Assembly: GCA_008932965.1 (NCBI GenBank)
Contig: WBXG01000009.1
Span: 4,145-36,144, forward strand
Source: Verrucomicrobiota bacterium
GTDB lineage: Bacteria > Verrucomicrobiota > Verrucomicrobiia > Chthoniobacterales > UBA6821
Reading direction: 5' to 3'
DNA: 32,000 bases
This document shows, one piece after another, positions 26,875 to 27,897 of this stretch. How positions within the stretch are numbered: position 1 is the first letter of the stretch; each line of letters begins with the position of its first letter. The position numbers were made by a program, and so were the translations under genes. A model generated the notes under the pieces. The model was given only the letters and a program-made list of their open reading frames with translations. It was not told the origin of the DNA and did no database searches.

Positions 26875-27897
26875 ATGAGTACTCCTTTTATCGTTGGCAC
26901 ATTGCATTCTAAGGAATGTCTTAGAATGCTAACACATCACTTTCATACTGATTCTGTTACGACTTGTAAAAATATGATCGATAGAGCATCAGGCTTAACC
27001 CGGATATTTCATACTGATCTACTAAGGAAGCCGGGAAGCCAGATGGATGCTGTGTTGAGCTCGAAGTCTTCCTCGGGCAGTATGTACTCATACAGCCGTC
27101 GTCAGACTTCATCACTCGCCTTGCCCCATCAGCCGTCACGGCCTCCTCGTCACGATCAGTATGAAATATCCGGGTTAAACTTTTCCTCGAAAGGTATGAA
27201 AAATACAGCCATCCTCGAAGACCACAGCCTTCCTTCTCTTCATCAGCCTTCGCAGCCTCCTCGTCACAATCAATGTGAAATATTCGGGCTCAAGAAAAGT
27301 CCTAGAGAACTCTTTGATGGAATTGATCTCTTAGAAGCTCGTCTGGATTCATTACCTCTTTCTCTATTGCCCTCATTATGGCCCCTTCCAGTGATTGCCA
27401 CAGCACGTCATCCTGCTGAAGGTGGCGTTTCTCATCATACCACATTACAACGGCAACATCTGCTAGAAGAGTCTCTTTCGTGGGCTTGTGCCATCGATAT
27501 CGAATTACGTTCTATGAAGCACATGAAATCATTAATAGAAAATGCAAAAAAAGAAAAACGTTTCATCATCTCCTCCTTTCATGATTTCAAGACTGTTCCC
27601 TCTTTGTCTCGTTTGAATCAGATGGCCTTGCGTGCTTACGATGCAGGGGCTGATCTTTTCAAAGTAGCTTGTACGATTCATCATGAAGAGGAGCTGATAC
27701 GCTTACTTGCTTTTCAACTCATGATGCCAACTCATTTTCCAATCGCATGCATGGGGATGGGGGAGGGAGGGAAGCTCTCACGAATACTTCTACCACTCTG
27801 CGGATCTTGGCTTAGCTACGGGTGGCTTTATAAACCTCAACTCCATGGACAATGGTCTGCAAAGGAATTGGCCCTTTTATTTAGAAAATTGTGGTAG
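26875..27897 (+). CDS. aroD: 3-dehydroquinate dehydratase, type I, carrying a 121-codon in-frame insert made of two nested palindromic elements
   Basis: The native N-terminus MSTPFIVGTLHSKECLRM is the beta1 strand. After the insert come IDLLEARLDSL, VIATARHPAEGG, IDIELRS, SSFHDFKTVP (catalytic His region), LFKVACT (Schiff-base Lys region) and GKLSRIL. Residues 19-139 are element-derived. Without the insert the protein would be 219 aa, a normal AroD length. Confidence 0.8.
   Translation: MSTPFIVGTLHSKECLRMLTHHFHTDSVTTCKNMIDRASGLTRIFHTDLLRKPGSQMDAVLSSKSSSGSMYSYSRRQTSSLALPHQPSRPPRHDQYEISGLNFSSKGMKNTAILEDHSLPSLHQPSQPPRHNQCEIFGLKKSPRELFDGIDLLEARLDSLPLSLLPSLWPLPVIATARHPAEGGVSHHTTLQRQHLLEESLSWACAIDIELRSMKHMKSLIENAKKEKRFIISSFHDFKTVPSLSRLNQMALRAYDAGADLFKVACTIHHEEELIRLLAFQLMMPTHFPIACMGMGEGGKLSRILLPLCGSWLSYGWLYKPQLHGQWSAKELALLFRKLW
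26929..27291 (+). mobile_element. Palindromic element copy M (older, degenerate), split into halves 26929-26994 and 27179-27291 by copy N
   Basis: The left half CTAACACATCACTTTCATACTGATTCTGTTACGACTTGTAAAAATATGATCGATAGAGCA aligns with the left half of copies B and C2. The right half ...CATCAGCCTTCGCAGCCTCCTCGTCACAATCAATGTGAAATATTCGGGCT aligns with right arms. Confidence 0.75.
26995..27178 (+). mobile_element. Palindromic MITE-like element, copy N (best-preserved copy, nested in copy M inside aroD)
   Basis: TTAACCCGGATATTTCATACTGATC ... GATCAGTATGAAATATCCGGGTTAA, a perfect 22-bp TIR with TTAA at both ends. It has a central hairpin GTATG-TACT-CATAC flanked by GAAGTC/GACTTC. The TTAA-to-TTAA distance is exactly 180 bp. 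Confidence 0.92.

Follow-up and report, generated by a model that had tools for sequence, protein, structure and literature searches.

The window analyzed here is a 32,000-nt stretch of contig WBXG01000009.1 (assembly GCA_008932965.1) from a Verrucomicrobiota bacterium, whose lineage is freshwater Chthoniobacterales ("Spartobacteria"). We report that the aroD gene in this window, encoding a type I 3-dehydroquinase, was probably hit twice by an in-frame transposable element of the miniature inverted-repeat type (MITE), and that the gene appears to have been maintained with the insert as a tolerated segment. The coordinates of the gene, of the parts of its insert and of the neighboring features are given in Table 1. 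The analysis followed a first-pass annotation in which aroD had been described as open and otherwise intact around an in-frame insertion built from two palindromic elements.

The product of aroD in the window belongs to a Verrucomicrobia bin and was annotated as an intact gene by PGAP. Pfam DHquinase_I (PF01487) matched amino acids (aa) 149-332 (profile positions 23-226 of 230, E = 7.7e-32) with 111.7 bits compared with a cutoff of 22.2, which identifies a member of the type I 3-dehydroquinase family. The NCBIfam aroD equivalog model also matched (E = 4.6e-26), with 92.3 bits and thus under its 139.3-bit cutoff; this match was confined to aa 170-333, 3' of the insert. Upstream of the insert, codons 1-19 (MSTPFIVGTLHSKECLRML) could be aligned to the N-termini of all close homologues. 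They contain PFIVGTLHS, the strand beta1 that the first-pass annotation had recognized at the start of the open reading frame (ORF); this motif is common to all orthologues, and in the alignment of 118 homologues its G8 and H11 hardly vary. Further, the core motifs reported in that annotation, including the catalytic His and the Schiff-base Lys, were all present. AroD of the window retained 31 of the 31 columns that were invariant among the 118 homologues (H236, K263, E154, R156, D158, R303 and Q326 belong to the invariant set) and nearly all of the near-invariant ones, so that the Schiff-base Lys, the general-base His and the substrate-binding Glu, Arg, Arg and Gln are in place. We take K263 and H236, among others, to be the counterparts of Salmonella K170 and H143.

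The insert follows codon 19 of the 340-aa ORF and adds a net 360 nt, or 120 codons. It is in frame, as first described, but smaller than the 363 nt and 121 codons given there. When it was removed, an AroD of 220 aa was obtained, one residue longer than first counted and of normal length for the core, and this sequence aligned without gaps to uninserted orthologues (CLRM-LKKSPRE compared with CLKRLAKRPQE). The inner of the two repeat copies in the insert has arms of 25 nt that are 100% complementary. Its RNA is predicted to fold into one long hairpin (-85 kcal/mol, z = -8.4), and its peptide reads TRIFHTD...PPRHDQYEISG. The outer copy has degraded ends and arms that no longer pair, but has kept a total length of exactly 176 nt. 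Its identity with the copies at 273, 2291 and 6669 amounts to 67-68%, compared with 60-62% for the inner type. We assign the outer and inner copies to different subfamilies, X and Y, respectively, and read the arrangement as nested, that is, as an old insertion with a later, young one inside it in the same phase and orientation. A tandem arrangement was rejected because the perfect copy is bounded by TTAA/TTAA and its flanks join into one 176-nt element of the other subfamily. Thus, the earlier description of two repeat elements held, but only the inner one is palindromic and the two are nested. An intein or intron was also considered and rejected: we found no Pfam domain and no Rfam family in the insert, intein splice residues are missing from its boundaries (L-T-H-H ... 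F-G-L|K), and both of its ends coincide with ends of the dispersed repeat.

The terminal repeat, AACCCGGATATTTCATACTGAT (22 nt), had 15 matches in the window with up to 3 mismatches and none in 100 shuffles. By nhmmer profile, about 14 copies or fragments of the family were recognized, which together cover 5.9% of the window. Paired ends delimit the elements, and the flanking 4-mers are mostly equal within a copy and different between copies, for example TTAA/TTAA, CTAG/CTAG and, at the copy at 6669/6934, the non-palindromic CTAA/CTAA. We read these 4-mers as a 4-bp duplication of a YTAR target. A duplication of two bases (TA), or none, was judged less likely, given that the whole 4-mer co-varies between the flanks, and 4 bp is also favored because the arithmetic of the reading frame requires 180 nt per event. 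The canonical element is 176 nt long and palindromic over its full length. In 132 kb of related DNA there were 29 paired copies, 14 of them of 176 nt, and among perfect-ended copies this length was found in 4 of 4 in the genome collection and in 4 of 7 in the metagenome collection. In the records, hosts of the element include "uncultured Spartobacteria" (Kiruna_bin-02438) and a Chthoniobacterales bin (Tobar2m-G38). The element matched no Rfam family, and no description of it was found in the literature searched.

These copies have several properties of a MITE. They carry terminal inverted repeats (25-nt arms in the inner aroD copy and the same ends on the 29 paired copies), they are small and numerous, and their sole stop-free frames (+0 and -0) give a peptide of about 60 aa without a Pfam match. 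Target-site duplication is indicated by the flanking 4-mers and by the filled aroD site, which is 2 x (176+4) nt longer than the ortholog-aligned state; the empty site in this comparison is an alignment of orthologues and is not strictly isogenic. Across the whole window, 11 of 13 assignable copies (nhmmer) lie on the + strand whatever the direction of the neighboring gene. The cumulative GC skew rises across the window, and the orientation of the copies may reflect a replication-strand bias (binomial p ~0.02, uncorrected).

Each insertion adds 176+4 = 180 nt, or 60 codons, and what follows depends on the phase. When the target YTA is read as Leu, the canonical element is stop-free in both orientations: frames +0 and -0 were each open in 12 of 13 canonical copies, compared with 0 of 13 for each of the other four frames, in which the means ranged from 2.5 to 6.6 stops. 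In phase +1, translation stops immediately at the TAA or TAG of the duplication, and in phase +2 it stops after six codons, N/S-P-D-I-S-Y. All three outcomes (a stop at the duplication, SPDISY-stop, and read-through in aroD) occur in the window. In a shuffled element, the +0 frame was open with P = 0.096 and both frames with P = 0.0037; both frames also remain open across the 47 differences between two centre variants (p ~0.03-0.09). These values suggest, but do not prove, that the element is under selection for translatability. Selection at the level of the peptide was not convincing: pN/pS, the ratio of non-synonymous to synonymous polymorphism, was 0.70 in the +0 frame across the 13 copies and 0.77-0.93 in the other frames. 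The outer aroD copy has no net indel and no stop, and random substitution at a like level kept its frame open in approximately 18% of simulations.

We compared the orthologous neighborhood nrdA - aroD - tRNA-Glu - grx - queA. The first-pass annotation had proposed a check of AroD orthologues, and the more distant syntenic ones did lack the inserted residues: orthologues of up to 65% identity in the same neighborhood have no inserted segment, and no element ends were found in 6.8 kb at an uninserted orthologous locus (one locus checked at the DNA level). In the sister clade (P0002, P0003; loci L001-L004), a single 176-nt copy with TTAT/TTAA flanks lies at the same codon and AroD is 280 aa long (220+60). 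Between L001 and L002, identity was 76% in the inserts compared with 96% in the core. The arms of these two inserts are orthologous (about 9% diverged, like neutral sites) and their centres are swapped. The inserts (724-907 in L001, 3055-3238 in L002) share the arms and a mutated left duplication, TTAT, and differ in the central hairpin (SSKSSSGS... in one and DSYLDLDS... in the other); both hairpin variants also occur in the window, at 27039-27084 and 28121-28166. Since the arms are shared and the centres are of different variants, the centre was presumably replaced by recombination between copies. Further, one variant of the window's gene (L018) carries in its outer copy a 16-nt patch with five changes toward the subfamily-X consensus, like a short gene-conversion tract. 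The sequences thus clearly point to gene conversion between copies acting on the aroD insert.

The window and the sister clade would then have acquired their insertions at Leu19 either separately or together. We favor independent hits at one permissive, preferred site (X/CTAA in the window, Y/TTAA in the sister clade), because the subfamily-diagnostic left arms and the duplications differ between the clades. A single shared ancestral insertion, suggested by tree parsimony, may also account for the pattern, because gene conversion between copies acts on the insert. A broader proposal joins the independent colonization of this codon in two sister lineages (X/CTAA in the window; Y/TTAA in L001 and L002) with an element family shaped by selection to live inside genes, a "translation-neutral" transposon. 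The 60-codon unit, the stop-free phase in both orientations, the Leu-to-Leu junction formed by the element's own YTAR and the immediate stops elsewhere are the features that speak for it; we put this joint proposal forward as tentative and rather doubtful.

The structure of the inserted protein was modeled with AlphaFold using the 118-sequence alignment. Over residues 1-20 the predicted local distance difference test score (pLDDT) was 88-89, and over residues 141-340 it was 86-98, but it lay below 50 for residues 49-138; residues 21-48 formed a low-confidence helical extension. Foldseek matched the model to solved AroD structures of Salmonella, Clostridium and Staphylococcus (3o1n, 1qfe, 3js3 and others) with E ~1e-15 (1.8e-15) and a probability of 1.00, and the predicted structure contains the (beta/alpha)8 barrel. 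The prediction, which had been suggested as a check on the first reading, thus gave a confident barrel, from which the insert departs at the end of helix alpha1 as a disordered segment. The insert had been expected at the surface helix-loop after beta1, and this expectation was not borne out. In the uninserted orthologue P0004, beta1, alpha1 and beta2 span residues 34-39, 42-50 and 61-65, respectively, and the insertion point lies between residues 48 and 49, in the last helical turn of alpha1, directly ahead of the connection between alpha1 and beta2. Standard triosephosphate isomerase (TIM)-barrel topology would place the insertion point on the barrel face opposite the active site.

We examined selection on the 220 core codons. 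The ratio of non-synonymous to synonymous substitution rates (dN/dS) was 0.115 between L001 and L002, both of which bear the insert (17 synonymous and 7 non-synonymous differences), and 0.16-0.17 across the deeper split between these loci and the window sequence, with dS ~0.76. The core is, as judged from these ratios, under purifying selection in the insert-bearing lineages. Further, seven different variants of 340 aa, which stem from independent assemblies (NCBI, JGI and ENA), had no stop and no frameshift. The 220-aa core contained 4 variable residues and the 120-aa insert 9, an enrichment in the insert with an odds ratio of 4.4 (p = 0.015). When five strain variants were compared, aroD had 22 segregating sites, of which 9 lie in 26915-26974, a stretch made up of the end of alpha1 and the outer element's left arm; each of these 9 alters the amino acid.

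These data bear on the alternative, raised in the first-pass annotation, of a recently inactivated pseudogene, in which AroD was lost through the insertions and its frame stays open for no other reason than that the element happens to be stop-free in that phase. The open frame alone proves little, because the element is open in its +0 frame by nature, and the strong mRNA hairpin and the interruption of helix alpha1 would fit a dead gene. However, the outer copy is old, with degraded ends and 60-68% identity to any other copy, and nevertheless the 220 core codons contain no stop or frameshift and every invariant core residue is retained. The low dN/dS, the seven variants in frame with a core approximately four times less variable than the insert, and the intact PGAP annotation also argue against inactivation, and we consider a pseudogene unlikely. 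An artefact of assembly, in which repeats of a metagenome bin were collapsed or joined into chimeras, has to be weighed as well, dispersed repeats of ~180 nt being a classic cause of misassembly. The nested structure was nevertheless recovered in at least five independent assemblies (NCBI, JGI, ENA) with identical architecture and few substitutions, and the single-insert version in four further independent assemblies of the sister clade. Misassembly is ruled out to our satisfaction because the seven variants from independent assemblies keep the frame, and we regard it as hardly credible.

A different possibility concerns the start codon. The length of AroD differs among gene callers (233, 271 or 340 aa), and the product could begin at one of two internal Met codons, Met108 to give 233 aa or Met70 to give 271 aa, as in the JGI products, with codons 1-19 and most of the insert serving as an untranslated leader. 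Such a product would lack strand beta1. An eight-stranded TIM barrel requires this strand. Further, codons 1-19 are conserved in frame, including the nearly invariant G8 and H11, and the 360-nt insert is open and in phase with them in every variant, the phase being kept in the sister clade too. Joint translation of codons 1-19 and the insert is indicated because there would otherwise be no reason for the phase to be kept open; a downstream start therefore seems very improbable.

We return to two in-frame insertions into a maintained gene, for which we propose the following course. A MITE, a DNA transposon of the non-autonomous kind, is abundant in this freshwater Chthoniobacterales lineage and probably entered aroD twice. 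The first to enter was a subfamily-X copy, at Leu19 (CTA|A); this copy has since decayed and is still 176 nt long and open. A subfamily-Y copy followed later at TTA|A inside the X copy, in the same phase and orientation. The outcome would be a 220-aa barrel carrying a 120-aa Ser/Pro/His-rich segment, predicted to be disordered, with the enzyme staying active and the insert a nearly neutral passenger. Insertions in other phases or places of aroD may be unseen because they would be lethal.

Several observations weigh against this proposal. The insertion cuts a helix and not a loop. A hairpin of -85 kcal/mol lies within the coding region, where it could impede translation or draw in RNase III. 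JGI gene callers place the start of this gene at the two internal Met residues. Finally, a search that covered 132 kb of related DNA, a part of the genomes, revealed no cognate autonomous element: no pair of ends lay 0.3-3 kb apart so as to be able to enclose a transposase. Because no autonomous parent or transposase was found there, we infer mobilization from the anatomy of the element alone.

Copies of the element are also read through in other genes. On related contigs, one is read in frame in IspG/GcpE (aa 331-391 of a 648-aa ORF), and another, which has the opposite orientation, lies in frame in GlnD, where it separates the HD and ACT domains. Further in-frame copies were found in an RluD-type synthase, at its C-terminus, and in proteins of the HAD and DR2241 types, close to their N-termini. 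A word-index peptide search gave only short ORFs, and an exhaustive profile search was required to find the long proteins. By the latter, 228 representative proteins contained the +0 peptide; most were short spurious ORFs, and the carriers also included an aldose 1-epimerase, a DR2241/Fer4_23 protein, an FtsX-type protein and several large proteins. In P0204 (576 aa), Vut_1 transporter and FtsX-type permease domains share one ORF with an in-frame copy, which may represent a gene fusion or an annotation run-on. Dozens of "hypothetical proteins" of 45-265 aa (P0046, P0094 and many with the prefixes K9M81_ and QE493_) are apparently translated copies of the element, some of them tandem element-plus-spacer repeats, and translated copies are thus a source of spurious protein families in databases.

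The recurrence of the peptide raises the question of whether the 60-aa module (L-x-R-I-F-H-T-D ... D-Q-Y-E-I-S-G-L) has been co-opted and now serves a separate role, for example in interaction, regulation or localization. Its presence in many unrelated proteins, the maintenance of both reading orientations and an inner copy that is no more variable than the core among strains would agree with this. On the other hand, its pN/pS is too close to that of the non-coding frames (0.70 compared with 0.77-0.93) to indicate clear protein-level constraint, the insert is predicted to be disordered, most copies are intergenic, the proteins that match the peptide are mostly short spurious ORFs and the outer copy is decaying freely. 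Co-option is therefore improbable in our view, and a tolerated passenger is the preferred reading of the aroD insert.

In-frame selfish repeats in genes are known from Rickettsia, as the Rickettsia palindromic elements (RPE), which have been reviewed together with other, more sporadic cases of MITEs (PMC10969869); the original descriptions, as summarized in that review, are those of Ogata et al. (2000, 2002). The element described here resembles RPE in being a short palindromic selfish repeat of high copy number that inserted in frame repeatedly in unrelated housekeeping genes, with a family-specific peptide that is apparently tolerated. In contrast to RPE, whose hosts are obligate intracellular Alphaproteobacteria, it resides in free-living freshwater Verrucomicrobiota, and it has clear inverted-repeat ends with a 4-bp YTAR duplication, a fixed unit of 176+4 = 180 nt and both orientations open. 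By this comparison, it would be a separate family that works as RPE do, and membership in the RPE families is very unlikely. In-frame fusions are also known for other bacterial MITEs, namely Coxiella QMITE1 (PMC5896051) and intragenic ERIC and Anabaena MITEs (cited in PMC10969869). Like the present element, these are non-autonomous, have inverted terminal repeats and occasionally form translational fusions or insertions; their cases are sporadic, whereas read-through is systematic in the Verrucomicrobiota element because of its open phase, its length divisible by three and its built-in stops in the other phases. The likeness to RPE proposed in the first-pass annotation, that of a selfish repeat tolerated in an essential enzyme, is thus supported in silico by the orthologues, structure, dN/dS, variants and other genes, as is the conclusion that this is a new MITE family, in a new phylum, behaving as RPE do.

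With respect to origin, the consensus of the element's targets (TTAA, CTAG, CTAA) and its duplication of 4 bp agree with those of IS5-group insertion sequences and their derived MITEs, which we take, as in ISfinder, to use a YTAR target with a 4-bp duplication; such a target has reportedly been described for this group. Unlike in that group, no transposase gene with the ends of the Verrucomicrobiota element was found in the 132 kb. Because only the target and the duplication are concerned, a possible IS5-like origin is a lead and not an assignment. As an enzyme, the window's AroD shares with type I AroD (Salmonella 1QFE, 3M7W) the fold, the catalytic His, the Schiff-base Lys and the family-invariant residues, and it differs in the 120-aa insert, predicted to be disordered, at the end of alpha1, the family typically being ~220-255 aa long. 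We know of no description, including in the literature searched, of an enzyme whose length grew by 55% through a nested double insertion.

These findings would extend the RPE-type phenomenon, in which selfish palindromic repeats become extra segments of essential enzymes, to a free-living freshwater phylum, with an unusually clear set of rules (YTAR target, 60-codon unit, stop-free phase on both strands). The gene also provides a natural experiment in which a TIM barrel was loaded with foreign disordered sequence, 55% of extra length in two dated steps, and natural variants of 220, 280 and 340 aa allow a direct biochemical comparison. A practical consequence is that gene callers disagree on aroD and that short "hypothetical proteins" in these bins are seemingly translated repeats.

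Table 1. Coordinates of aroD, its nested insert and related features in the window
Feature	Position	Strand	Description
aroD ORF	26875..27897	+	340 codons plus stop, ATG start; same as NCBI protein KAB2644568.1
AroD codons 1-19	26875..26931	+	Strand beta1 (PFIVGTLHS) and most of helix alpha1; end at Leu19 (CTA), part of the insertion target
Outer element, left target-site duplication	26929..26932	+	CTAA
Outer element, left 66 nt (older, subfamily X)	26933..26998	+	Degraded terminal repeat; last 4 nt (TTAA) are the inner target
Inner element (younger, subfamily Y)	26999..27174	+	176 nt; perfect 25-nt inverted ends counting TTAA; single long hairpin
Duplicated TTAA of the inner insertion	27175..27178	+	Partner TTAA at 26995-26998
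Outer element, right 110 nt	27179..27288	+	nhmmer profile positions 70-182
Outer element, right target-site duplication	27289..27292	+	CTCA, one substitution from CTAA, Leu kept
Remaining AroD barrel	27293..27894	+	Catalytic His236, Schiff-base Lys263 and all other invariant columns
Predicted junction-spanning peptides of the 340-aa AroD			For example, MLTHHFHTDSVTTCK, ASGLTR, HDQYEISGLNFSSK, CEIFGLK
Third element copy, degenerate	26672..26857	+	nrdA-aroD spacer; ends 17 nt before the aroD ATG
tRNA-Glu(CUC)	27892..27966	-	Opposite strand, over the aroD stop codon; kept at all orthologous loci
Fourth element copy	28077..28262	+	178 nt plus TTAA/TTAA; between tRNA-Glu and grx
Stop-forming duplications	2291-2294, 6530-6533, 9634-9637, 13661-13664		YTAR, element exactly at the gene end

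On both sides of aroD, the window contains further copies of the element. The degenerate third copy occupies most of the nrdA-aroD spacer, and any aroD promoter would lie within or upstream of this copy because it reaches to 17 nt before the ATG. A promoter scan upstream of aroD found no sigma-70-like promoter, a consensus that is uninformative for the Verrucomicrobiota phylum. The fourth copy was absent at the orthologous loci L001, L002 and L005; the spacer is too diverged for an empty site to be defined. At the 3' end, the gene for tRNA-Glu(CUC) overlaps the aroD stop by 6 nt, and in several orthologues the annotated C-terminus of AroD (…ARTGVEPVRQP) is an antisense translation of the tRNA-Glu gene.

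Elsewhere in the window, the TAA or TAG of the element's duplicated target forms the stop codon of four genes: the ORF at 225-2294, rpoD, a TPR gene and a CitMHS transporter gene. Apparently, stop codons are sites that the element targets or at which it survives. On the - strand, at 15798-15820, the dnaE ORF runs seven codons into an element and ends in S-P-D-I-S-Y-stop, so that the native C-terminal end of the DNA polymerase III alpha subunit has been replaced by the element. Further, the 225-2294 ORF (689 aa, no Pfam match) contains an in-frame 173-nt subfamily-X copy at 273-453, directly after a signal-peptide-like start (MNFSKNRLLFICCFLG); its true start is possibly after the element. In P0239, a 949-aa homologue of this protein, the copy is found elsewhere, at aa 131-200.

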